This document shows positions 15,515 through 60,252 of a stretch of DNA of 64,000 nt, one piece after another (the stretch's first letter is position 1; each line of letters opens with the position of its first letter). The notes beneath the pieces are model-generated. The model made no database searches and was not told the origin of the DNA. It saw only the letters and a list, made by a program, of their open reading frames with translations. The position numbers were made by a program, and so were the translations under genes. Origin of the DNA: Candidatus Babeliales bacterium (lineage in GTDB: Bacteria; Babelota; Babeliae; Babelales; JANWKD01); assembly GCA_963762115.1 (NCBI GenBank), contig CAVXJH010000003.1, positions 399,493 through 463,492 on the forward strand, read 5' to 3'.

Positions 15515-17131
15515 TTGAAAAAGCACTATAAAAAATATACCTGCAACCTCTTCATGGTCATTTTTCTAATAATAAGCATATTTTCAACACATGGCATGGA
15601 AGAACTAACTTCAAATAAAACCATTGAGGATTATTATGGCAACCTTTTTACGGGAGACGCTTCAACACTAGAAAAATGCGGCGATTTTTTTCAAACCATT
15701 AGTGATTTTGAAAATGACTCTGATAATGTTTCATTACTCCAAAGTATGAGACATCAAATAGTTCATGCATCTCCTGATGAAAAAACCATCGAAGACTATC
15801 ATGGCATCATTTTTACCGCGCCCGCTTCAACAATAGAAAAATGTGGCTTATTTCAAAACATTGGTGAATTTGAAGATGATTTTGATTTTAAGTCACCAGA
15901 TATTTGGAATCAATTATTTAGTAGAAGATTTCCTAAACGTGATATCAGTTTTTTTAAAGCAACGGCTGCTGACATACCTCTTTCAAAAGAAATTTTAAAA
16001 GCTGCCTTTGAATGCATCACACCTTTTTTTGAAAAAGCTGAATCCCCTGAAGACAAAAGAGAAAAAAGTGAAAAAATTCACGCTATGCTCGAGTCAATTT
16101 CAAAAGATCAGATGCGATCAATTTTTTCTGTCATTAATTATCTTGGCCCCCAAAAAGAAAAAGTAGCTAAAAAACTTGCTCAACAAATGAAAGCGATAAT
16201 TCCATCAAATGAATTAAAAGAAGAAAATGAAATTGATTTTATCATTTTATCGAAGCTATATGACAAATCTATAGGTACAATTATCAAAAAAAAAGAAGAA
16301 ACGGCATATTTCGATTCGCTAAAGCCTAAAGAACTTAATTTCCAAAAAATGAATATCGAATCCCTGCAAGGTATCGAACATATTAAAATTGATAAAAATA
16401 ACATTAGTACGTTACGTCTTAGTAACAATAAATTAACAACCTTAAATATTAAAAATCTTTTAGAAATATTTCCCAACCTTAAACATATCGATGCTGAGCA
16501 TAATCTAATTACAAAGGCTATTTTCCCTGAACAATTACCTGCCAATATAAAAATATTTTTGTATCAAAATTTTATTAAGGAACTAATGCCTTTTTATACA
16601 AATGATAAGAATAAAATAGACTTAAGAAATAATCCTTTATCTGCCGATGCTCATGAAAACATTAAAAAAGCCTTAATTCCACCGTTTTTTAAAAGAAACC
16701 GACATCATTTATATTTTTTTAAAGAAGCCTCTAAATCATTTTTATTTAATAGTTTAACTGGCGCAGGAATATCTACATGCTTTATTTGGGCACCTATAGG
16801 AATTATTCGATCTTACAAATCTGAATATCCGGCCCCAAATACAATTACACAATCTATACTTTTCCATATATTGTTAGGCACAGTAAGCCCATCGTTTTAC
16901 CTCTTTTTAAAAACAGAACAGCTTTTGGGATTCGGAAATTCACCTTCATCAGCACATAAACATTTTTTACAATTTGTTGATAAATATGCTCTTGCAAGCA
17001 GCTTAATTATAGGAACTACATCTATTGCTTGGAAACTTTATAAAAATGAATTAACTGAATACAAAAAACACAAATACGTTCCAACAGCAAAGATTTTTAC
17101 TGGTGACTTCGATGAAAGTGCAGGCATATGA
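15515..17131 (+). CDS. Exported Skp1/BTB-like + LRR + TM protein (paralog 1)
   Basis: Signal then GMEE; LRRs LRLSNNKLTTL, IDAEHNLIT, IDLRNNPLS; C-terminal hydrophobic helices; start may be ATG 15554. Confidence 0.75.
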   Translation: MKKHYKKYTCNLFMVIFLIISIFSTHGMEELTSNKTIEDYYGNLFTGDASTLEKCGDFFQTISDFENDSDNVSLLQSMRHQIVHASPDEKTIEDYHGIIFTAPASTIEKCGLFQNIGEFEDDFDFKSPDIWNQLFSRRFPKRDISFFKATAADIPLSKEILKAAFECITPFFEKAESPEDKREKSEKIHAMLESISKDQMRSIFSVINYLGPQKEKVAKKLAQQMKAIIPSNELKEENEIDFIILSKLYDKSIGTIIKKKEETAYFDSLKPKELNFQKMNIESLQGIEHIKIDKNNISTLRLSNNKLTTLNIKNLLEIFPNLKHIDAEHNLITKAIFPEQLPANIKIFLYQNFIKELMPFYTNDKNKIDLRNNPLSADAHENIKKALIPPFFKRNRHHLYFFKEASKSFLFNSLTGAGISTCFIWAPIGIIRSYKSEYPAPNTITQSILFHILLGTVSPSFYLFLKTEQLLGFGNSPSSAHKHFLQFVDKYALASSLIIGTTSIAWKLYKNELTEYKKHKYVPTAKIFTGDFDESAGI

Positions 17132-18567
17132 ATAAAAAAATTAGAATACTTCATTTTTTGATTCTAGTTTTTGCTTTAGCAAATATTTCGTTCTTACAAA
17201 GCATGAGACATCAAATAGTTCATGCATCTCCTGATGAAAAAATTATCGAAGATTATCATGGCACCATTTTTACCGTGCCTGCTTCAACAATAGAAAAGTG
17301 TGGTGGATTTTTTCAAACCCTTGCTGATTTTGATACCTTTTATTTTGAAACATCAGATATTTGGGATCAATTATTTAGTAGAAGATTTCCTAAAAGCGAT
17401 ATCAGTTTTTTTCAAACGAAGGCAGCAGATACCCCTCTTTCAAAAGAAATTTTAAAAGCTACCTTTGAATGCATCACACCATTTTTTGAAGAAGTTAAAT
17501 TACCTGAAGAAAAAAGTGAAAAAATTAAAGCGATAATCGAATCAATTGATAAGGATCACATTCGATCAATTTTTTCTGTAATAAATTATCTTGGCCCCCA
17601 AAAAGAAAAAGTAGCTAAAAAATTAGCTCAACGAATGAAAGCGATAATTCCATACGATGAATTAAAAGAAGATAATGAAATTGATGTTATTGTTTTATCG
17701 GGAATATATGATAAAACAATACAAAAACTCCTTAAAAGGAAAAATCAATGGGGATTTTATAACCAACGGGTAGCCCAAGCTTTAGAGCTTAAAGGAATGA
17801 AGCTTGACAACTTGAAAGGAATTGAAAAGATAACAATTGAAAGTGTTAGGCTATTATATCTTAACGATAATGCATTAAGAACACTTGATATTGCGTATCT
17901 AAAAAAAAAATTTCCAAAACTTACTTACATCAATGCAAGCAATAACTGCATTACCACTCTCATTCTTCCCTCTAAATTACAAGAGCGTTTAACCATCGAA
18001 CTTAAAAACAATTTAATTAAAGAACTGCCTACCTTTTCATTAGATGGTGATTGTACAATTAACCTAAAAGGTAATCCTTTATCAGAAGATGCCCATAAAA
18101 AAATTAGAAAAGCATTAACACCACCATTTTTTATAAAAAATAGGCATCATTTAATTTTTTGGGCAAATAACGCAGGATATTTAATACGCGGAGTATTCTT
18201 TGGTGGACTCATTGGAATGCCATTAGGAACATCACTAGCAACTCTCTATTATTGCCCACGTACAACAATAATAGCAGGTATAGCACTTGGCTTGAGCGCA
18301 TCCACTTCATCAACAATAGCCCAAGCCATTCCTTATTTTATGATTGCTCCTTACCTGGCAATAAGGCTTAATCTTGACCCTGAGTTTTCAAATCATTGTA
18401 CTGGCTTTGTACCATTTGTTCATAAATTTACTTTAGGAAGCAGTTTGGCCTTAGGATTTATTTCACTCATAAGTGAAACGAAAAATATTGCACGAGACTA
18501 TGAACGAAATAAATACATTCAACGAGCAAAAATTTTCACTGATGCCGATGATTCTGCAAAAAATTAA
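17128..18567 (+). CDS. Exported Skp1/BTB-like + LRR + TM protein (paralog 2)
   Basis: Tandem paralog of 15515; LYLNDNALRTL, INASNNCIT, INLKGNPLS. Confidence 0.75.
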   Translation: MNKKIRILHFLILVFALANISFLQSMRHQIVHASPDEKIIEDYHGTIFTVPASTIEKCGGFFQTLADFDTFYFETSDIWDQLFSRRFPKSDISFFQTKAADTPLSKEILKATFECITPFFEEVKLPEEKSEKIKAIIESIDKDHIRSIFSVINYLGPQKEKVAKKLAQRMKAIIPYDELKEDNEIDVIVLSGIYDKTIQKLLKRKNQWGFYNQRVAQALELKGMKLDNLKGIEKITIESVRLLYLNDNALRTLDIAYLKKKFPKLTYINASNNCITTLILPSKLQERLTIELKNNLIKELPTFSLDGDCTINLKGNPLSEDAHKKIRKALTPPFFIKNRHHLIFWANNAGYLIRGVFFGGLIGMPLGTSLATLYYCPRTTIIAGIALGLSASTSSTIAQAIPYFMIAPYLAIRLNLDPEFSNHCTGFVPFVHKFTLGSSLALGFISLISETKNIARDYERNKYIQRAKIFTDADDSAKN

Positions 18568-22120: not shown

Positions 22121-22562
22121 CTTAACATTTTAAGGAAATACGATGAATATTCAAAAAAACACTTTTATGTGGGCACTATTGATAGCTAACTTACTCTTTA
22201 ATATGCCAACTTTACTTAAAGCAGACATGCAAAACACTGAAGAAGCATTAAATAGCTTTGAAGAAACCTTGAACGCAGGCCACGAACAAACAAAATGCAT
22301 AATGGAGTGTTTTTATAAACATCAAAAAGAATCAGATAAAATGGAATGTACAATGTGTTCACAAGAATGTGAAATGGCATATTTAAAAAAAATTATAGCA
22401 ATTCAGAGAAAAAAAAATGAAGCTCTTCAGCAAAATAAATCTGATAAATCTAACTAACTTAACGTTTTAAGGAAATACGATGAATATTCAAAAAAACACT
22501 TTTATGTGGGCATTATTGGTAGCTAACTTGCTCTTTAATATGCCAACTTTACTTAAAGCAGA
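22121..22562 (+). repeat. 105-bp direct repeat (22121-22225 / 22458-22562) covering RBS + signal peptide
   Basis: 4 mismatches; identity stops at the predicted cleavage site. Confidence 0.9.
22143..22457 (+). CDS. Small exported protein with twin CX3C motifs (paralog 1)
   Basis: Signal peptide ...LLKA; CIMEC and CSQEC. Confidence 0.75.
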   Translation: MNIQKNTFMWALLIANLLFNMPTLLKADMQNTEEALNSFEETLNAGHEQTKCIMECFYKHQKESDKMECTMCSQECEMAYLKKIIAIQRKKNEALQQNKSDKSN

Positions 22563-22815
22563 AAATAAAGAAACAAAAGAATATGATGAGCTACACAGTT
22601 CACTTGAAGCATTAAAAAATGATATAAAGGCATGTAAAGATGTTTCAGGGGAACTAGAACTTGTACTGAGTGCACACTTAGAAAAAGCATTTTGCAATCT
22701 TGAATGCGCATCTAAAAAACAAGATAAAACAATATGCCAGAACAAATGTGAAGTTGAACATTTAAGAAAAATTGTACATTTTTGGCAAAATAAAGTTAAT
22801 AATTCTAACAAATAA
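22480..22815 (+). CDS. Small exported protein with twin CX3C motifs (paralog 2)
   Basis: Near-identical signal peptide; CNLEC and CQNKC. Confidence 0.75.
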   Translation: MNIQKNTFMWALLVANLLFNMPTLLKAENKETKEYDELHSSLEALKNDIKACKDVSGELELVLSAHLEKAFCNLECASKKQDKTICQNKCEVEHLRKIVHFWQNKVNNSNK

Positions 22816-23282: not shown

Positions 23283-24744
23283 CTACTCTTTACCCACATT
23301 TTTACTATAATTAACGAGATACAGAGTTAATATATCAAAAAAAGAAAAGTAAAAAATGATTAAAGAATTGTGGGCAGCAAATGAGACTAATCGTATGTCA
23401 TTAAAAGATAAACGCAGAAATGAAAGAGTTAGAATACTTCTAGAGGCCGTTGCCGATAGCCCATCAGCAAGCATTTTACAAGCTTGCAACGGAGAAAATG
23501 CACAAGCAAAAGGTGCTTATCGTTTTCTTGCCACAACAGAAATTGATGAACAAGATATTCTCGAAGGACATTATCAAGCAACCGTCGAAAGAGCTGAAAA
23601 TGCTGATGGAAAAGTCATTATTGTTAGCGATGGCATGGATGCATCTTTTAAAAATCTTAAAAAAACTTCAGGGTTAGGAACTCTATCTAATACAAAAAGT
23701 TCACTTGGAATAAAAGTTCAAAATACGTATGTATTTAGTGAAAATTTTATTCCATTAGGGCTAATAAATCAAAAGTATTGGATACGCAATAAAGAAGATT
23801 TTGGCAAAAAAAAACATAAGCTAAGGTTGCCTACAAAGGAAAAAGAATCTTATAATTGGATTGAATCAATTTATCAAATAGAAAAAAAGCTTCCTATAAA
23901 TAAAAGCTATTTATTTATAGGTGATGGTGGTGCCGATATTTATGATTTATTAACAGCAGAAAGGCGTGTAAATAGCGATTTACTCATTCATCTTGTGCAA
24001 AATAGAAATATACAGAACGAAGAAGAGCGTCTCTTTGAATTGCTGGAAAAACAATCAGTATTAGGCGTTATAACGAAAGAATTAGAACGTACAAAAACTC
24101 ATTCTAAGAGAACTGCAAAGTTAGCGATTAGAGTCAAAGAAGTCGAAATTTGTTCTCCTTTAAATCGAAAAAATGAAAAATTACCAACCATACATTTAAC
24201 AGCGATTTATGTGCAAGAAATAGAATATGACAACTCAGTAAATGATCCAATAGTATGGCGACTTATTACTACGATTAAAGTTCAATCATTGGAAGAAGCT
24301 GAAAAGCTTATTGCCCTTTACTCAAAACGTTGGCTCATTGAACGCTATCATTATATTTTAAAAGAAGGTTGTCGCATAGAAAAATTTCAAATGGAATCGG
24401 TTGATAACCTAAAAAGAACCTTGGCTGTTTACTCAATTGCTGCCTGGCGTTTAATTTATATCACTTATCTTGCAAGAATTAAACCTGATGCCCCATGTAA
24501 TTTAATTCTTACAACCGATGAAGCTGATGCGTTATATTGCACGCATCATAAAACTCTTACATTGCCCCCCAAATCTTTTTCTGTTAAAGAAGCAACTCAA
24601 ATGATAGCAAAATTAGGAGGTTTTCTTGGCAGGAAAAACGATAAAGATCCTGGTGCAAAAGTTTTGTGGCAGGGATTATTTCGGCTAGAAGCCATTACAC
24701 AAGCTTATCTTTTATTTAAAGAACTAAATGTGGGTAAAGAGTAG
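23283..24744 (+). mobile_element. IS4-family (IS50/Tn5-like) insertion sequence, 1462 bp
   Basis: Terminal IRs CTACTCTTTACCCACATTT; flanking direct repeat CATATACGCG at 23273-23282 and 24745-24754. Confidence 0.95.
23356..24744 (+). CDS. IS4 family (Tn5-like) DDE transposase
   Basis: DKRRNER, AYRFL, YSKRWLIERYHYILK (YREK), LGGFLGRKNDKDPG; stop codon lies in the right IR. Confidence 0.95.
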   Translation: MIKELWAANETNRMSLKDKRRNERVRILLEAVADSPSASILQACNGENAQAKGAYRFLATTEIDEQDILEGHYQATVERAENADGKVIIVSDGMDASFKNLKKTSGLGTLSNTKSSLGIKVQNTYVFSENFIPLGLINQKYWIRNKEDFGKKKHKLRLPTKEKESYNWIESIYQIEKKLPINKSYLFIGDGGADIYDLLTAERRVNSDLLIHLVQNRNIQNEEERLFELLEKQSVLGVITKELERTKTHSKRTAKLAIRVKEVEICSPLNRKNEKLPTIHLTAIYVQEIEYDNSVNDPIVWRLITTIKVQSLEEAEKLIALYSKRWLIERYHYILKEGCRIEKFQMESVDNLKRTLAVYSIAAWRLIYITYLARIKPDAPCNLILTTDEADALYCTHHKTLTLPPKSFSVKEATQMIAKLGGFLGRKNDKDPGAKVLWQGLFRLEAITQAYLLFKELNVGKE

Positions 24745-25098: not shown

Positions 25099-28115
<3,017 letters not shown>

Positions 28116-28171
28116 ATTCCCCCTTTAAACCAGTAAATAAATGCCATTAATCAAAAATATACATAATACAA

Positions 28172-28199
28172 TTGACTTTTATCAATAATATTTTATAAT
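28172..28199 (+). promoter_or_regulatory. Sigma70-like promoter of the four-gene array
   Basis: TTGACT-N16-TATAAT. Confidence 0.55.
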
Positions 28200-28248
28200 T
28201 GAATATAATTACAATGATTTATCTTATTTTAATAAAAGGGACAAAGAT

Positions 28249-29208
28249 ATGAAATCACTATTTCTTAAAGGTTTAAACCTGTTATTTGCAGTTGCACTCT
28301 TTGCAACAATAAATACATATGCAATGGAACAACAAGAAGAAGTTGCAGAGCCTATTTCTGCTCAAGCGCAAACTGATAATGTTATTGAACGTATGTATAA
28401 TGCTTTTAGCAAACAACTTGATGAAAGATTTCCAGAAGCACCTACAAATTTTTATGAAGCAATTGTACGCCTTCAAAGCATTGCAAAATTACTTGAAAAA
28501 TCTGAGATTGAACTCTGTGAAAATTTCAACGCTACACAAGAAAGTTGTATAATAAATGGCATTGAACAACCATATCATATGCTTCATCCAATTTTTAAAC
28601 ATTGGTTTCAAAGCGCTTGCAACAAAACTCTTCTTGAACATACAAAATCTATTGAAGCAATTGATCTAATATTTGATTTATTAAGTAAAATAACAACAGA
28701 GAACAATATCGAAAATTACAAAAAAGCAATTGAATCTTTGCCCCATGTTATTGCTGAATATATCAAAGAAGAATTTATTGAAATGCATGGCTGGAAATAT
28801 AAAAATAAAGGCTGGCTGACTGACTTTAAACCTCAAATGACTTTTGATGATAATGAAAACATGATAAATGTCGAATTTATTAAAGATAATTATCATGTTC
28901 GTGGATATTATTTGAAAGCAATCGATCAACCAATAATCGTTGTAATTAATTTAAATAATGGAACATATCCCTATATGGCGTTTAACGCTCATGCAACATT
29001 ACCACCAATGCTTTCAGACCTTTTGAACAATTTTTTTCATATTCCATTACCAGAAAGCGGTGTTTACCCTCCACTTTGGGAAAAACCAACATTTGAACAA
29101 TCATTAAAAAATTGTATCCAAGAAAACGCTAAAACATTAATAGGAAAAATAAAAAGACAAATCCAATCAACATTTTATTCTTTTAGCGAATTTATGGATC
29201 GATTTTAA
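28249..29208 (+). CDS. Exported array protein 1
   Basis: Signal + AMEQ; family domain PTNFYEAIVRLQSIA...PYHMLHPIFKHWF. Confidence 0.8.
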   Translation: MKSLFLKGLNLLFAVALFATINTYAMEQQEEVAEPISAQAQTDNVIERMYNAFSKQLDERFPEAPTNFYEAIVRLQSIAKLLEKSEIELCENFNATQESCIINGIEQPYHMLHPIFKHWFQSACNKTLLEHTKSIEAIDLIFDLLSKITTENNIENYKKAIESLPHVIAEYIKEEFIEMHGWKYKNKGWLTDFKPQMTFDDNENMINVEFIKDNYHVRGYYLKAIDQPIIVVINLNNGTYPYMAFNAHATLPPMLSDLLNNFFHIPLPESGVYPPLWEKPTFEQSLKNCIQENAKTLIGKIKRQIQSTFYSFSEFMDRF

Positions 29209-29263
29209 TGAAACATAATAAAAAAACTCTTATTTTTTAATTAGAACGTAGAGGAATATGTAT

Positions 29264-30220
29264 ATGAAATCACTATTTTTTAAAAGGTTAACACCTTTAT
29301 TACTCACCGTTACACTCTTTGCAGCAATAAATATACAAGCAATGGAACAAGAAGAAGGACAAGAACCTTTTTCTGCTCAAGAACAAAGCGCCAATGCCGA
29401 TAATGTTGTTGAACGTATATATAATGCTTTTAGCAAACAACTTGACGAAAGATTCACAGAATCACCTACAAATTTTCGCGAAGCAATTGCACAACTCAGA
29501 TGTATTGCACGATTACTTGAAGAATCTGAAGTTGAACTTCTTGAAGATTTCAACGTTACACAAGAAAACTGCACAATACATGGTATTAAACAACCATATC
29601 ATATGCTTCATCCAATTTTTAAACATTGGTTCAAAAATGCTTACGAAAAAATCCTTCTTGAACATCCAAAAGTTATTGAAGCTGCTGATGTAATTCTTGA
29701 AAGATTAAGTGAAAATGTTTCTCATGAAAATATGAATAATTATGATAAAGCAATTACAAATCTGCCAAAAATTGTTACTGAATGCATCCAAGATCAATTC
29801 ATTGATATACATGGTTGGCCACACAATATAAAACCCTCAATCACATTCAATGATTCGGGAGTAAAGCACATTTCATTTCTTCAAGATAATTATGTTTTTG
29901 AAGGATTTGGAACTGGTTGGATACATAAAACACGGTCACAACAAAGTCATTTAGAAAATATCAATAATAATCCTTCAGCATGGCTTAGCCGCAGCTCTAC
30001 ATTGGTTGATGGAAAATTAGCAACAGGAATTGCATACGAATTAGGATTAGCTGAAGAAATAAACGGAGATATTAAACCATTAAAAGCCTCTAATGATAAA
30101 GAAGAACCAAGTGGTGTATTACCACCTCTTTGGGAAAAACCAACATTTAAAGAAGCTCTTAAAAAACGAGCTGAAGAAAATAAATTAAAGAAAAATAGAA
30201 ATAGATGTATTATAAGTTAA
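29264..30220 (+). CDS. Exported array protein 2, C-terminal CaaX (CIIS)
   Basis: Paralog of 28249; ends KLKKNRNRCIIS. Confidence 0.8.
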   Translation: MKSLFFKRLTPLLLTVTLFAAINIQAMEQEEGQEPFSAQEQSANADNVVERIYNAFSKQLDERFTESPTNFREAIAQLRCIARLLEESEVELLEDFNVTQENCTIHGIKQPYHMLHPIFKHWFKNAYEKILLEHPKVIEAADVILERLSENVSHENMNNYDKAITNLPKIVTECIQDQFIDIHGWPHNIKPSITFNDSGVKHISFLQDNYVFEGFGTGWIHKTRSQQSHLENINNNPSAWLSRSSTLVDGKLATGIAYELGLAEEINGDIKPLKASNDKEEPSGVLPPLWEKPTFKEALKKRAEENKLKKNRNRCIIS

Positions 30221-30263
30221 AATCCATCTAGCATTTTTTAATCATATAGAAGGGACAATTTTT

Positions 30264-32132
30264 ATGAAATTATATATTAAACAGGGCAAAAAGGCCTTAT
30301 TACTTTCTCTCGTATTATTTACCGGAATCACACTCAATGCAATGGAACAACAAGATAAGCCTGAATATAGTTCTTTCGTTGATAATCTAGAGATAGTACT
30401 AAAAAGAAATAACAAACAACTCTGCGCAAAGCTTCTTCATCATTTCAATGAAGAAATTGAACAAAAAGAAGTAATTGAACAAGTTTCTATAGTTGCAAAT
30501 TTAATACCATATGCTGCACAAAAAAGTAATCAAGTAACCTCTGTACTTTGCAATGCACTGGTAAAAATTGTCCAGGCTAACGACTCATTAGCCTCAATAA
30601 TTAAAGAAAAGATAAATCCTGTTATTCACACTTTAGTAGCACACCAAAGAAAAAAGGCTTTAAAAAAACTTCTTTGTATATTTGCTGATAACACTGAATC
30701 GGAAGAATATACAAGGATTAATCAAATTATACAAAGTAAGTTACAAAAAGGATTAACCGTATTTAATCCAGAAGAAAATTCTACCACAAAAGAAGCACTA
30801 AAATATATTTATTCTACTATTGATTTGATACAAGAATCGATATCAAACCCACAACGCACAGTAATATTCTGCAATATGTTGCTAGGTCATTTTATTAGCC
30901 AAGAAAAAAATTTCAGAACAGACATGCAAAAAATTATTTCTCCAATCATTCATCCTCTAATTCAAGCTAATAACATTGAAGCATTAAAACAAATTCGATA
31001 TATTTTCTCTGATTTTAAAGATAAAGATACACAAGAATACAAAATCATACATAAAGCAATTAAAAAATATAATTCAGTAATAAAATCCAAGCAAAATGAA
31101 CAGCTTGCAAAATTATCAGAAAAAAGTCCTCATGAAAAAGTTGCAACTGAAGATAACGATCAAGAATTAAACTTTGCTCGCACTGTTAGTACAAGGGAAA
31201 CTACCAATCCAAGTGCGACTACTTTTGAAAATCCAATTGATTTTATGAGATTACAAAAGGAATCTGCTGAACTTACTGGTGTTCCGCTCTCAGATGAAGA
31301 AGCTGATGCATTTTTGATTAGAATTTTAGAAGAACACATCGACAATCACCCTTCTTGCAAGAAAATACCAAAAACATTTTATGAAGCTTTAGTGCGTCTT
31401 CAATGCATTGCTCGTTTGTTTGATAAAACTCGCTTTTATATAGGTGATATGGAAATTACAGAGAATGATTGTGTGATTAATAACTTAGTTCTTCCTCATC
31501 ATATGACAAATAAAAGATTTAAACAGTGTTTTGATATTGTCAAAAATCGAACCGTACTTCTTTCCCATGAAAAATCTGTTGAAGCAATAAATATCATTCT
31601 TGAAAGCATCAGTAAAAAAGTAAAACCAGAAACGGCAGCCGAATATATAAAAGCAATTAATTGTTTACCCTCTTTTTTTTCTCATAACATTAAAAAGCAA
31701 TTTAATAGAATGATGTATCAAGAATTATATAATATTCCTTTGATAACAACGGGTTTAAATTTTATTGGTTCGTTTGTTAATTATGACATAGTAAAAACCA
31801 AAATTAAACCTTATGAAGTTATCTTCGATGAAGAAGACAGGATAACATCATTCAAATTTAAAAAATCTGGAATTAACGTTGAAATATCTAACATACATTG
31901 GATAGGACAGGATCCTTGGGGTAAAGCAGTTATGGGAAGTGAAACATGTTATGGTACTGATCTAAACAATTTACACACTCTTCTAAATAGAAAATTTGAG
32001 GGACGAGCAACATATTTTGATGAAAACGACTTTATTTGGCGACTAAATTTTGAAGAAATGTTACAAAAACGTGCTCATGAAAATGAAAACAAGACACAAG
32101 AAAAGCAACAATCAAAATGCATTATAAGTTAG
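30264..32132 (+). CDS. Exported array protein 3, mosaic, C-terminal CaaX (CIIS)
   Basis: Two helical repeats shared with protein 4, plus the PKTFYEALVRLQCIA domain shared with proteins 1 and 2; ends QSKCIIS. Confidence 0.8.
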   Translation: MKLYIKQGKKALLLSLVLFTGITLNAMEQQDKPEYSSFVDNLEIVLKRNNKQLCAKLLHHFNEEIEQKEVIEQVSIVANLIPYAAQKSNQVTSVLCNALVKIVQANDSLASIIKEKINPVIHTLVAHQRKKALKKLLCIFADNTESEEYTRINQIIQSKLQKGLTVFNPEENSTTKEALKYIYSTIDLIQESISNPQRTVIFCNMLLGHFISQEKNFRTDMQKIISPIIHPLIQANNIEALKQIRYIFSDFKDKDTQEYKIIHKAIKKYNSVIKSKQNEQLAKLSEKSPHEKVATEDNDQELNFARTVSTRETTNPSATTFENPIDFMRLQKESAELTGVPLSDEEADAFLIRILEEHIDNHPSCKKIPKTFYEALVRLQCIARLFDKTRFYIGDMEITENDCVINNLVLPHHMTNKRFKQCFDIVKNRTVLLSHEKSVEAINIILESISKKVKPETAAEYIKAINCLPSFFSHNIKKQFNRMMYQELYNIPLITTGLNFIGSFVNYDIVKTKIKPYEVIFDEEDRITSFKFKKSGINVEISNIHWIGQDPWGKAVMGSETCYGTDLNNLHTLLNRKFEGRATYFDENDFIWRLNFEEMLQKRAHENENKTQEKQQSKCIIS

Positions 32133-32170
32133 AATATATATTTTTTAAACCATATAGAAGGGACAATTCT

Positions 32171-33007
32171 ATGAAATTATTTATAAAACAAGGTAAAAAC
32201 ACCTTATTACTTTCTCTCGTATTATTTACCGGAATCACGCTTCAGGCAATGGAACAACAAGGGAGCGAATACGGCTATTTAGTTGATACTCTTGATGCAG
32301 CAATGAAATCATCAAATCCCACTGCTTGCAAAGATCTTTTCGAAAGCTTTAGTAATGATCTTAACCAAAAAGATCCAATCGAACGAGCTGCTATTGTTGT
32401 TGGCTTAACACAAGAAGCAGCAGCGAAAAAAAATGAACAATTAACAGGGGTATTTTGCAATGCACTCGTTAGTATTTATAACACTAGCCCCGGAATAACA
32501 GAAGCAATGCAAGAAATAATAAGCCCTGTCATTCGTCCTTTGGCAGAGCACAAACAAATATCAGCATTGGGAAAAATTCACTGTATTTTTTCTAACAATA
32601 TTGAAAGCGAAGAATATAGACAAATTGATGAAGCAATTAAAAATAAATTGCACGGTAATACAACAGTAAATACTGATGAAGATGAAGCAATTGCAAGATT
32701 ATTACAAGAAGAAGTTCAAAGTCCTGATGACAATTTTGCACCTAAAGATAACGATCTCAACAGGGCACTAGCATTAAGTTTACAAACAGGCAGACAAGAT
32801 GACGAACAAGCAGAATTAGAAAAAGCACTGCGTGCAAGCAGATTTACCAACCCTAGCGCACCCGTACTAACAGACATCGAAGAAGATGATGCAGTATTAC
32901 GTATTGCACTCGCAGAAAGCTTACAAGTAAACACACCAAATACCAACTCAAATCCAAGCATCTGGAACAATCTCCGCAACATATTTTTAGACGGCTTTGG
33001 TAGTTAA
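32171..33007 (+). CDS. Exported array protein 4 with tandem ubiquitin-interacting motifs
   Basis: Start at ATG 32171 by homology with 30264; DLNRALALSL, ELEKALRASR, VLRIALAESL. Confidence 0.8.
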   Translation: MKLFIKQGKNTLLLSLVLFTGITLQAMEQQGSEYGYLVDTLDAAMKSSNPTACKDLFESFSNDLNQKDPIERAAIVVGLTQEAAAKKNEQLTGVFCNALVSIYNTSPGITEAMQEIISPVIRPLAEHKQISALGKIHCIFSNNIESEEYRQIDEAIKNKLHGNTTVNTDEDEAIARLLQEEVQSPDDNFAPKDNDLNRALALSLQTGRQDDEQAELEKALRASRFTNPSAPVLTDIEEDDAVLRIALAESLQVNTPNTNSNPSIWNNLRNIFLDGFGS

Positions 33008-33017
33008 TACTATTTCA

Positions 33018-33053
33018 ATGAACTGGTCATGCACCAATGTATGACCAGTTCAT
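33018..33053 (+). terminator. Long hairpin closing the array
   Basis: atgaactggtcatgca-ccaa-tgtatgaccagttcat. Confidence 0.65.
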
Positions 33054-33099
33054 GAACAAGAATCGTACAATACCAAAAAATATGATAGGCTAACCCATT

Positions 33100-58483: not shown

Positions 58484-59356
58484 TTAATAAACCCATTGAA
58501 AAAACCTACTCCAACGAACACGTTGCCAAAAATCAATTGGATGTTTGATTAAATCAAGAATCCACCATGATTCATGGCTATCAATTGACCACAAGCGCAC
58601 AATAATTTTGCCATGAATCAATTTACCGTCAAGTGGTCCCCAAAAACGCGAATCATAGCTTCCCAACCGATTATCACCCATCGCCCAATATTGATTTGAA
58701 TCCAACGTGATATCAAAAATATCAACATTCCTACCATATTGATCAAAGGAGGGAGTTTGAGGTAACCGTAACCAATCTTGATCATATGTCTTTGACCAAC
58801 GCTTCCCAAGCTCAACGTCATACTCATCCATTCGATAAAAAGGCTGATCATTAAATGAAAAATTTTCATCGTAGGAAGAATGCAATAGGCATTTATTATT
58901 ATAAACAGCAATAAGAGGATATTTATTTAAATAAGGTTCATCTAATTTTTCCCCATTACGATAAATAACCGGCTTTCCATCTTCAATTACTCCTTTAATA
59001 TGATCACCAGGAAGACCAATCACTCGTTTAGTCCAATTAGAAGGTCCCCAAACATAACGTTGAAAAACGTCCGTAAAATAGTTATGAGAATAATTAAAAT
59101 TGGGATCATTAAAAGTAATAATATCGCCATACTTGATTGGTCGAAATAAATATGAAAATTTATCAGCAAAAAAACGTTCACCAACTAACATGGTTGTTTC
59201 CATTGAACCCGTTGGCACTTGATACAGACCATAAAAATAAGTGCGAATAAAAAAGGCAATTGGCACAATAATAAGAAAAGATTCTATATATTGAGCAATT
59301 TTTGATTTATGAGGACGTTTAAGCCAAACACGAAACTTATTAATAAATTCTAACAT
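58484..59356 (-). CDS. lepB: Signal peptidase I (paralog 2)
   Basis: VPTGSM (Ser), TKRVIGLPGD (Lys), MGDNR..SYDSRFWG. Confidence 0.93.
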   Translation of the reverse strand: MLEFINKFRVWLKRPHKSKIAQYIESFLIIVPIAFFIRTYFYGLYQVPTGSMETTMLVGERFFADKFSYLFRPIKYGDIITFNDPNFNYSHNYFTDVFQRYVWGPSNWTKRVIGLPGDHIKGVIEDGKPVIYRNGEKLDEPYLNKYPLIAVYNNKCLLHSSYDENFSFNDQPFYRMDEYDVELGKRWSKTYDQDWLRLPQTPSFDQYGRNVDIFDITLDSNQYWAMGDNRLGSYDSRFWGPLDGKLIHGKIIVRLWSIDSHESWWILDLIKHPIDFWQRVRWSRFFQWVY

Positions 59357-59379: not shown

Positions 59380-60252
59380 TCAAGATACTCTTTGAAGAAA
59401 CCGATTCCATCGAATACGTTTCCAAAAATCAAGGGGATGTTTGATCAAATCAAAAATAAGCCATGATTCATTGCTATCAATTGACCATATTCTAAAGACA
59501 ATCTTTCCATGTATCAATTTACCATCAAATGGACCAAGAAATCGTGAATCTTTGCTTCCCAGTCGATTATCACCCATACACCAATATTGATTTGGCGCCA
59601 AGTGAACATCAAAAATATCAACATTTCTTCCATAGTGATCAAACGAAGGCGTTCCCGGCATTAATAACCATTCTTGGCCATACATATCTGACCAACGTTT
59701 TCCTAATTCCGCCTCATAGTCATTAAAACTATAAAATGGTTGATCACTATATGAATAAGCTGGGTCATAAGAACGTGGCGCTTGGATGCGATTATTTTTA
59801 TATAACGTAATAAGAGGAAATTTGTTTAAATATGGTTCATCTAATTTTACATCATTGCGATATACAACCGGTTTTCCATCTTCAATAACGCCTCTAATAT
59901 GATCACCTGGAATACCAATAACACGCTTTGTCCAATTAGTAGGACCCCATACATAGCGCTGAAACAAATCAACCCAATAATTATCAGAATATATAAAAGT
60001 AGGATCATTAAGAGCAATAATATCGCCATGCTTTATTGGTATAAATAAGGGCGTAAATTTATCTGAAAAAAAACCCTCCCCAACCAATATCGTTGTTTCC
60101 ATTGAACCCGTCGGTACTTTATAAAGTCCATAACCAACCGTTCTAATAAGAAATGCAATCGGCAAAATAATAATGAAGGTTTCAAGATATTCTGCAACGA
60201 TAGATTTATTCGGTCGTTTTCGCCATTGATGAAATTTTTGAACGAGTGTCAT
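59380..60252 (-). CDS. lepB: Signal peptidase I (paralog 1)
   Basis: VPTGSM, TKRVIGIPGD, MGDNR..SKDSRFLG. Confidence 0.93.
   Translation of the reverse strand: MTLVQKFHQWRKRPNKSIVAEYLETFIIILPIAFLIRTVGYGLYKVPTGSMETTILVGEGFFSDKFTPLFIPIKHGDIIALNDPTFIYSDNYWVDLFQRYVWGPTNWTKRVIGIPGDHIRGVIEDGKPVVYRNDVKLDEPYLNKFPLITLYKNNRIQAPRSYDPAYSYSDQPFYSFNDYEAELGKRWSDMYGQEWLLMPGTPSFDHYGRNVDIFDVHLAPNQYWCMGDNRLGSKDSRFLGPFDGKLIHGKIVFRIWSIDSNESWLIFDLIKHPLDFWKRIRWNRFLQRVS

Follow-up and report, generated by a model that had tools for sequence, protein, structure and literature searches.

The window analysed here is a stretch of 64,000 nucleotides from the genome of a Candidatus Babeliales bacterium (NCBI GenBank assembly GCA_963762115.1, contig CAVXJH010000003.1, positions 399,493 to 463,492 of the forward strand); positions below are counted from its first nucleotide. 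Between gyrB and tilS the window carries an array of four co-directional open reading frames (ORFs) on the plus strand, P1 to P4, which span 28249–33007 and are separated by spacers of 38–55 nt. All four ORFs are complete, each possessing its own ribosome-binding site (RBS), start codon and signal peptide, and none is a silent cassette. We consider it fairly probable that they encode tandem paralogous effectors, exported by Sec and acting in the host cell with a farnesyl anchor, which have been shaped by duplication, fusion and end-swapping. The genes and the block repeated at two of their junctions are as follows.

P1, 28249–29208, plus strand: 319 amino acids (aa); signal peptide (aa 1–25), domain A, amphipathic C-terminal helix.
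P2, 29264–30220, plus strand: 318 aa; signal peptide (aa 1–26), domain A, KLKKNRNR stretch, CaaX box CIIS (30206–30217).
P3, 30264–32132, plus strand: 622 aa; signal peptide, B1, B2, linker, domain A, CaaX box CIIS (32118–32129).
P4, 32171–33007, plus strand: 278 aa; signal peptide (aa 1–26), domain B (approximately aa 30–165), disordered tail, three cores of the ubiquitin-interacting motif (UIM).
Junction block copy 1, 30206–30352, plus strand: CIIS codons, stop, 43-nt spacer with the RBS-like GAAGGGACAA, signal-peptide codons of P3.
Junction block copy 2, 32118–32260, plus strand: CIIS codons, stop, 38-nt spacer with the same 16-nt core, signal-peptide codons of P4.

The start of P2 at 29264 was picked from its homology with P1 and its distance from the RBS-like AGAGGAA, with an alternative start at 29258. 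The P4 frame is open from 32117; the start at 32171 was chosen as the equivalent of the P3 start, and it lies 3′ of the shared GAAGGGACAA. By inspection, all four N-termini have a lysine-rich n-region, a hydrophobic run of 10–15 residues, small residues at −1 and −3 and the sequence AMEQ, which are the features of a Sec type I signal peptide, and each protein would be cleaved by signal peptidase between Ala and Met (A↓MEQQ in P1). Four proteins with this AMEQ sequence had already been recognized in a first-pass annotation made from the nucleotide sequence.

The domain composition proposed in that annotation agrees with the alignments. Domain A is shared by P1 and P2 (46% identity, E-values of 1e-75 to 1e-87), and residues 369–483 of P3 align with the domain A of P1 (40% identity, E-value of 5e-18). 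Domain B of P4 matches P3 twice, at residues 1–196 (44% identity, E-value of 4e-43) and at residues 176–372 (29% identity, E-value of 1e-13), and the two copies within P3 also recognize one another (E-value of 9e-8). P3 is thus of B+B+A architecture, comprising B1 (approximately residues 31–175), B2 (approximately 176–300), a linker (approximately 296–360) and domain A (341–622). The linker is homologous to the UIM-bearing tail of P4, with its motifs decayed.

The C-terminal ends differ among the four proteins. P1 ends in FMDRF, lacking a CaaX box, and its tail is strongly amphipathic (hydrophobic moment of 0.59, compared with a 95th percentile of 0.55 and a median of 0.33 for the proteome). 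P4 ends in a conserved …GFGS, and its tail has a hydrophobic moment of 0.36, close to the proteome median; of the amphipathic helices suggested earlier for P1 and P4 in place of CaaX, only that of P1 is retained. The P1 helix would take the role of the CaaX box.

Domains A and B have no Pfam match, and profile searches of the PDB gave no significant match to either. Weak Pfam matches to Copine, Imm30, Mutator, PH_20 and Sbi-IV were discarded, their scores lying far below the cut-offs, and a protein atlas held no usable match for P2 or P4. Domain A was modelled with AlphaFold2 (AF2) from P2 with 8 aligned sequences, and domain B from P4 with 5. The model of domain A comprises a helical region, A-N (residues 45–190, predicted local distance difference test (pLDDT) of 80–96), a beta region of low confidence (residues ~190–290) and a last helix (residues 295–317, pLDDT of ~90). 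It has no Foldseek match at an E-value of 1e-3 or better, and in a wide structural search the best matches (Munc13, Exo70 and cullin repeats, VIA Z of 6.5 at best) lie below the stated noise level of the tool; by its calibration, these matches are the background expected of helical bundles and reflect a generic arrangement. The folds considered for domain A, namely cullin repeats, the CATCHR fold of Exo70/Munc13 and F-box adaptors, thus gave no significant structural or profile match. The model of domain B is an all-alpha solenoid of 130 residues (pLDDT of 65–84). Its best match is a designed repeat protein (Z of 10.1), followed by importin-beta, beta-catenin and AP complexes (Z of 7.5–8.7); these values fall in the range that the tool calls common for helical repeats, the resemblance being generic, and the predicted fold is a short ARM/HEAT-like helical repeat. 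Both domains are novel modules, and neither matches an ordinary periplasmic family in the Pfam, PDB profile or fold searches, in keeping with what had been proposed. Domain A can be pictured as a novel helical scaffold in which A-N and the last helix enclose a variable beta insert, and both domains are taken as putative protein-binding modules.

The junction between neighbouring genes is repeated. Positions 30150–30420 and 32060–32330 are 83% identical over approximately 270 nt, and the identity rises to 88% in a 95-nt core that includes a perfect run of 37 nt (30295–30331, all 12 codons identical); the spacer core CATATAGAAGGGACAA is identical at 16 of 16 positions. Both copies belong to one collinear 1.9-kb repeat (29444–31100 and 31344–33007), seen when 29444–31250 is aligned with 31344–33007, at an identity of 45–60% over A, 87% at the junction and ~60% over B. 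The twofold occurrence of a block of CIIS-stop, spacer and signal peptide, as first described, is therefore real, and on the alignment the block is the best-conserved stretch of a duplicated A-B gene pair. The idea that it is a unit of recombination crossing gene boundaries is not supported, since the duplication is old and collinear and the codon comparison is not significant. At identical residues of P3 and P4, the codons are identical at 19 of 24 positions in the signal peptide and at 37 of 60 in the rest of domain B (p = 0.20). The number of synonymous substitutions per site (dS) between P3 and P4 is 0.42 over codons 1–35 and 0.87 over the remainder, and the last 30 codons of P2 and P3 have a dS of 0.91, which is not low. 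The RBS-like AAGGGACAA within the spacer core also occurs 5′ of P1, so the core is probably under selection.

Selective constraint on three elements, namely the signal peptide, the RBS and the CaaX box, suffices to explain the identity of the junction, with conversion a possible contributor. That the likeness stems instead from a recent gene-conversion tract across the gene boundary is, for the junction alone, a reading with some claim that we nevertheless hold to be rather unlikely. It would account for the perfect 37-nt run, the identical spacer core and the lower dS at the 5′ end of P3 and P4; a clear conversion-like tract adjoins in P1 and P2 (p = 0.003, below), and the A and B genes of a related locus have a signal-peptide type in common. 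These points are set against the non-significant synonymous excess, the probable selection on the RBS-like sequence and the high dS at the ends of P2 and P3. Gene conversion at the P3/P4 junction was accordingly dropped as a demonstrated event (p = 0.20).

The family is restricted to one genus-level lineage. A profile of domain A matched 24 of 1,835,955,588 representative proteins. In a set of 5.8 billion proteins, 4 of 1386 candidates were retained for P2 and 2 of 2254 for P4, the proteins of the window included, so that this set contributes only two or three further metagenome proteins. Among 41 Babeliales genomes, two have a family match, namely the source genome of the window (G000) and its congener (G001). 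Contig-level genome scans gave one spurious 34-residue match with P3 as query and none with the related protein P0004, and a metagenome scan with a narrow alignment recovered one locus, L099, on a contig of a closer relative.

The architectures of the 24 matches indicate an exchangeable insert bracketed by A-N and the last helix. The A-family tails among them comprise the CaaX forms CIIS, CIVS, CIIC and CGIS and the amphipathic forms …FMDRF and …KIWNYCLGK. In P0015, A-N is fused straight to the last helix, the middle region being absent, and in P0005 and P0006 of the source genome and in P0026 and P0029 from elsewhere, A-N and a full WD40 propeller precede a last helix of the PTFE… type. A B-B-A fusion occurs in P3 and P0018, and B is joined to A-N and WD40 in P0006 and P0029; this repeated fusion suggests, from sequence, that A and B bind each other. 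The two distant paralogues of the source genome are as follows.

P0005, contig C3, 25068–27203: signal peptide, two A-N copies, WD40 propeller, CTIG end.
P0006, contig C7, 12911–15085, minus strand: signal peptide, B, UIM-like stretch, A-N, WD40.

The position of the array between gyrB and tilS is constant across the relatives compared. In G001 the order is gyrB, a0, a minus-strand ORF, a1, a2, b (domain B with UIMs) and tilS; no fused gene and no CaaX tail is present. In L099, whose GyrB is 95% identical, gyrB is followed by the minus-strand ORF, one A-CIIS gene and one B-UIM gene. The gene content of L099 shows that a pair of A-CaaX and B-UIM genes exists on its own. The B-UIM gene of L099 (8289–9113) has two in-frame stops (8400–8402 and 8790–8792), is alignable to its end …GGFGS and is probably a recent pseudogene. 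The extra A-type gene a0 of G001 (L018) lies in a 991-nt segment bounded by two direct copies of the last 42 nt or so of gyrB (5380–5421 and 6371–6412, 42 nt each and 88% identical); through this repeat, a0 ends in a copy of the last 13 residues of GyrB, and the segment has the appearance of an insertion that entered gyrB at its end and duplicated the target.

The fused form is of old date: P3 has an orthologue, P0018, that is fused over its full length and shares an end-to-end identity of 46%, and in the tree A-N of P3 groups with those of P0016 and P0018 (support of 96/98), apart from P2. An origin of P3 from a recent duplication of P2 was dropped for the same reasons. P0016 is a stand-alone domain A of P3 type with its own signal peptide and aligns to P3 from residue 331 on; a supposed remnant of domain B in P0016 was rejected, as BLASTP places its N-terminal part on the linker that precedes domain A in P3.

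Among the paralogues, whose divergence ranges from a dS of 0.4 to more than 1, real mosaicism occurs away from the junction. Over codons 1–145 of P1 and P2, dS is 0.37, compared with 1.01 elsewhere, and codons are identical at 84 of 96 identical residues in this tract and at 31 of 47 in the rest (p = 0.003). The dS of gyrB between the source genome and L099 is 0.78, which makes the tract younger than their split. The C-terminal 18 residues of P3 and of the P2-type protein P0002 agree at 16 positions, whereas P2 itself has a different tail. P1 has a tail orthologous to that of a1 of G001, but its A-N is nearest to that of P0004, which ends in CIIS. P0014, of a2 type, bears the signal peptide of b of G001, and the A and B genes of L099 share one signal-peptide type. 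The swapped tails and signal peptides and the dS pattern of P1 and P2 indicate that ends were exchanged between neighbours, as is expected for tandem paralogues with short spacers.

An ordered series of events can be proposed from these comparisons. An ancestral pair of A-CaaX and B-UIM genes, in the order kept in a relative, would have been duplicated, copying the tail-spacer-head junction twice. The middle B and A would then have merged into one gene, either by an out-of-register crossover of two A-B pairs, which would give A, B·A, B in one step, or by an in-register duplication with a later deletion. B would subsequently have been duplicated internally while the UIMs of the fused copy decayed, and later partial gene conversion and end-swapping would have homogenized or exchanged 5′ ends and C-terminal tails. 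The mosaic would thus have arisen entirely on an evolutionary time scale.

The array genes evolve at the protein level approximately ten times as fast as gyrB, which is typical of host-interaction genes: the ratio of non-synonymous to synonymous rates (dN/dS) is 0.38 for P1 and its L099 counterpart and 0.04 for gyrB. They are still under purifying selection, and the ORFs are therefore real genes.

The farnesyltransferase CaaX motif has Cys at −4, followed by two aliphatic residues, and ends in S, M, Q, A or C. P2 and P3, which end in CIIS, and their relatives, which end in CIIS, CIVS, CIIC or CGIS, match this pattern. CIIS is the commonest C-terminal tetrapeptide of the source genome (7 of 1454 ORFs, compared with 0.009 expected), and Cys at −4 is found in 48 ORFs against 21 expected; this proteome-wide enrichment argues that CIIS is a functional tail rather than a chance ending. 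CIIS and CIIC are also the endings of yeast Ras2 and Ras1. Upstream of CIIS, P2 has the basic sequence KLKKNRNR and P3 the weakly basic KTQEKQQSK. CaaX-like endings number 28 in the source genome, 14 of them on ORFs with a signal-peptide motif, including three ankyrin proteins (824–927 aa) and two WD40 proteins. Outside the array there are 26 CaaX-like ORFs, and a Pfam scan covered 15 of them and one ORF with two UIM-like cores (below). Among these 16 proteins, the same ankyrin and WD40 proteins were joined by one weak ankyrin match below the cut-off and one NADAR protein, and nine had no family. In 61 Babeliales genomes, a DNA pattern for CIIS-stop gave 36 matches in 22 genomes, and the reversed control gave 10 matches. 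A full-text literature search, with subscription journals outside its coverage, returned no paper linking CaaX to Dependentiae. Together, these tails strongly suggest a CaaX-type targeting of P2 and P3 to host membranes, in which the host would farnesylate both proteins at the C-terminal CIIS and so attach them to its membranes.

The disordered tail of P4 bears three UIM cores in tandem, which the first-pass annotation did not mention.

UIM core DNDLNRALALSLQ, 32744–32785, plus strand: aa 192–205 of P4.
UIM core EQAELEKALRASRF, 32804–32845, plus strand: aa 212–225 of P4.
UIM core DDAVLRIALAESLQ, 32885–32926, plus strand: aa 239–252 of P4.

Each fits the pattern of an acidic stretch followed by Φ-x-x-A-Φ-x-x-S, and P4 is the only one of the 1454 ORFs with three such cores. 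In the AF2 model, helices at residues 195–203, 213–222 and 239–250 coincide with the cores in an otherwise disordered tail. The Pfam family UIM_2 (PF23625) matches P4 with 21.0 bits, equal to the cut-off of 21, and weak PDB matches are to the tandem UIMs of RAP80 (E-values of 0.23–0.65). Cores are also present in the orthologues of P4: three in b of G001, three in P0008, and two sites in the B gene of L099. P4 would thus be predicted to bind ubiquitin or ubiquitinated cargo through its three UIMs. The sole other ORF of the source genome with two UIM-like cores is on contig C1 (4715–5575, minus strand, 286 aa) and has no Pfam family.

Tandem UIMs are found in eukaryotic proteins such as S5a/Rpn10, epsin and Hrs. 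P4 resembles RAP80/UIMC1 in having several single-helix motifs of the form acidic-x-x-Φ-x-x-A-Φ-x-x-S with disordered linkers between them. The likeness is at the level of the motif only; in P4 the motifs follow a bacterial signal peptide and a novel domain of helical repeats.

The source genome (1.53 Mb, 34% GC, completeness of 95%) encodes three TLC ATP/ADP translocases, and the organism is an obligate intracellular, ATP-importing member of the Babeliales (Dependentiae), an energy parasite of protists. It has two secretins, and a T2SSE ATPase is encoded in the window; no match to VirB4 or FHIPEP was found in the genome at its completeness of 95%. Each protein of the array would be exported by Sec and cleaved by signal peptidase I after a small residue, leaving a mature protein that starts with Met-Glu, and would then reach the host cytosol, perhaps by a type II-like secretin system or by vesicles.

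This Met-acidic end is not confined to the array. Of 616 ORFs of the source genome with an N-terminal hydrophobic run, the run ends in M-[E/D] in 138, compared with 3.3% expected, and in 130 of the 138 one of the small residues A, G, S and C comes before it. In samples of 400 kb (approximately 3.5% expected, 0–6 in the reversed control), the motif occurs in 44 of 170 such ORFs in the source genome, 35 of 169 in G001, 26 of 171 in a genome of another family (G020) and 14 of 149 in one of a third family (G022). The window itself contains stereotyped examples of [A/G/S/C]↓Met-[Glu/Asp] at 15515, 27522–28115, 38410, 43992, 46688 and 48500. No description of a Met-acidic signal-peptide end was found in the literature searched, and the only papers about signal peptides of Babeliales that a full-text search returned, again with subscription journals outside its coverage, were the Chromulinavorax paper and its preprint. 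Two tandem genes for signal peptidase I may be relevant to this unusual cleavage-site motif.

58484–59353, minus strand: signal peptidase I (Peptidase_S26), 289 aa.
59380–60249, minus strand: signal peptidase I (Peptidase_S26), 289 aa.

A wider interpretation, which we regard as doubtful but worth stating, is that the array is part of an undescribed, order-wide export code for Babeliales effectors and that A and B are the halves of a membrane-anchored ubiquitin adaptor. Approximately 10% of the proteome would then carry a Sec peptide cut to an invariant Met-Glu/Asp N-terminus. Such a start resembles the NatB-type terminus of a newly synthesized eukaryotic protein, and the Met-acidic end could be a second sorting or stabilizing signal that dispenses with type III or IV injection. 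CaaX, UIM, ankyrin and WD40 modules would be appended for host targeting, and the adaptor would be made either as subunits (P2 and P4) or as a single chain (P3 and P0018), in the manner of a Rosetta-stone pair. The genome-wide signal-peptide pattern may be a more interesting lead than the array itself.

The reading of P1 to P4 as Sec-exported, farnesyl-anchored effectors builds on what was observed of their gene and domain layout, homologies, restricted distribution, synteny, enriched motifs and dS values, and several points weigh against it. Secretion into the host, operon status, prenylation and ubiquitin binding are deduced from the sequence. A Sec signal peptide alone would lead to the periplasm, and no marker of a type III or type IV secretion system was found. 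No clear polybasic stretch precedes CIIS in P3, and the congener G001 has neither a CaaX tail in its array nor a CIIS-stop match. The PF02809 score of P4 (20.5 bits) is below the cut-off of 21, and UIM_2 is matched at an E-value of 0.05 or better in only two of five members of the B family. The extra identity of the junction has no significant synonymous component (p = 0.20), and selection alone can explain it. The stand-alone P0016 means that fusion and fission cannot be polarized. The A-N tree leaves P1, P2, P0002, P0004, P0011 and P0015 without a firm position (11 of 20 inner branches open), so that orthology and the direction of the tail swaps are not firm.

The array could also consist of ordinary envelope or periplasmic proteins, with CIIS a bacterial sorting or processing signal, for example for an Rce1-like (CPBP) protease of the bacterium itself. 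Classical Sec signal peptides on all four proteins, the single Rce1-like domain of the source genome (within an ORF of 1159 aa) and the lack of a dedicated injection system in the VirB4 and FHIPEP searches are in its favour, and it is nonetheless an improbable explanation. Of 14 control genomes without CaaX proteomes, 11 also encode Rce1-like domains, and CIIS is found on ankyrin and WD40 proteins and beside UIMs, all three of which act in the eukaryotic cytosol; the Ras endings point the same way. No prenyltransferase match was obtained in the source genome, a weak argument given that the control genomes were equally silent, and the absence of such an enzyme was for this reason dropped as a claim. 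Signal-peptide proteins of Dependentiae have, moreover, been read as secreted effectors: in the cultured Chromulinavorax destructans, 44% of coding sequences have signal peptides and were so interpreted (PMC6561590). Like the organism studied here, Chromulinavorax is an obligate intracellular, ATP-importing protist parasite with many signal-peptide ORFans and ankyrin proteins taken for effectors; unlike here, CaaX and prenyl terms have no occurrence, and no A/B family appears, in the part of that paper available (PMC6561590).

Least probable is a dedicated diversity-generating locus with the tail-spacer-head block as an actively exchanged recombination cassette: no other stretch of the array is as similar as the repeated block, the tails and signal peptides of relatives disagree with the domain tree, array content varies over the three related genomes and a Tn5-like transposase gene lies 3.5 kb upstream, past gyrB, but the block copies are only 83–88% identical and show no significant synonymous excess, each gene comes with an RBS, a start and a signal peptide of its own, the fused architecture is kept in an orthologue at 46% identity, a repeat search over 27500–33500 found no inverted repeats of at least 80% complementarity within the four genes, a Pfam scan of the 51 other ORFs of the window found no recombinase in or beside the array, and the one metagenome run with the locus gave no alternative joints in its short contigs, which are identical to the window, of low depth and possibly from the source sample. 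With no silent cassettes, near-identical repeats or recombinase in the array, its mosaic look is, on the sequence comparisons, that of ordinary gene-pair duplication, fusion and end exchange, and no programmed mechanism is indicated. Of the domain-shuffling effector locus originally proposed, the modular family and past recombination are upheld, the CaaX-type targeting to host membranes is strongly suggested, and the generation of variants is not supported.

The cassette-type variation systems Anaplasma msp2/p44 and Neisseria pilE/pilS draw on partial cassettes that have no promoter and are flanked by nearly identical repeats, with conversion that is frequent and runs in one direction. The array shares with these systems and with toxin tips its clustered paralogous segments and the exchange of ends by recombination, and differs from them in its complete genes, its repeats of 83–88% identity and its old divergence. 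In the tip swapping of polymorphic toxins, clustered paralogous segments exchange their ends by recombination (PMC3482391).

Closer parallels to the predicted farnesyl-anchored effectors are found in Legionella and Salmonella. The prenylated effectors of Legionella are not known to carry Sec signal peptides and enter the host through the Dot/Icm type IV injection system, whereas P1 to P4 have cleavable signal peptides, no VirB4 or FHIPEP is found here and prenylation is predicted. SifA of Salmonella is likewise an effector with C-terminal CaaX-type host prenylation. AnkB and the other Pel effectors of Legionella pneumophila are reported to end in a CaaX box of eukaryotic type, through which host farnesylation anchors them to host membranes (PMC2916131, PMC5506055, PMC13081727), and GtgE is a further Salmonella effector with host prenylation of CaaX type (PMC13423502). 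The likeness to AnkB and Pel extends to an amoeba-associated intracellular bacterium and to the joining of CaaX to eukaryote-type repeats, CIIS being the end of ankyrin and WD40 proteins in the source genome; domains A and B bear no relation to these effectors in sequence or fold, and the phylum here is Dependentiae. SifA and GtgE share the prenylation type and differ in their type III delivery, in belonging to unrelated families and in having no tandem modular array.

Dependentiae are widespread and almost uncultured protist parasites whose toolkit for host manipulation is essentially unknown, and the locus supplies testable candidates. These comprise two novel, genus-restricted domains, a eukaryotic farnesylation box used across the proteome and tandem UIMs that point to the host ubiquitin system. 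If host prenylation is confirmed, the CaaX strategy of Legionella and Salmonella would also be that of a distant phylum, combined with another export route. No new mechanism of recombination emerges from the locus; it documents the growth of a family through gene-pair duplication, fusion and tail swapping at approximately ten times the housekeeping dN/dS.

The features that surround the array are listed below.

27522–28115, minus strand: divergent ORF of 197 aa, neighbour of the array, with its own signal peptide (…LPLIC↓MEED).
28172–28199, plus strand: sigma-70-like site TTGACT-16-TATAAT (11/12), the best of the region; consensus match only.
33019–33052, plus strand: hairpin 3′ of P4, perfect over 11–15 bp (dG of −26.3, z of −7.2).
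23356–24741, plus strand: Tn5-like DDE transposase upstream of gyrB, identified by the Pfam scan.

The arrangement from promoter to hairpin seen in the first-pass annotation has predicted signals at its two ends: the sigma-70-like site is 50 nt 5′ of P1, and the hairpin, which was equalled in 0 of 200 shuffles and is not followed by a T-run, is possibly the end of the transcript or a stabilizer. P1 to P4 are probably one operon; a look-up of RNA runs that contain the locus returned none. The divergent ORF is syntenic in both relatives (G001 and L099) and fast-evolving (dN/dS of ~0.39 compared with L099); it has no Pfam match at the curated cut-off and no homology to domain A or B. For the transposase gene, no similar ORF of at least 100 aa in G001 or at least 90 aa in L099 was found at the same place, the ORFs there not having been scanned with Pfam.

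Other signal-peptide proteins are encoded elsewhere in the window. The ORF at 4184–6223 (minus strand) has a eukaryote-type cytosolic phospholipase A2/lysophospholipase domain (PLA2_B, E-value of 9e-29) behind its signal peptide and is a candidate for another host-directed enzyme. Two pairs of adjacent ORFans with signal peptides have no Pfam match: 22143–22454 and 22480–22812, with near-identical N-termini (MNIQKNTFMWALL…), and 15515–17128 and 17128–18564, with similar C-terminal ends. Both pairs look paralogous, and tandem duplication of secreted genes seems to be common in this genome.

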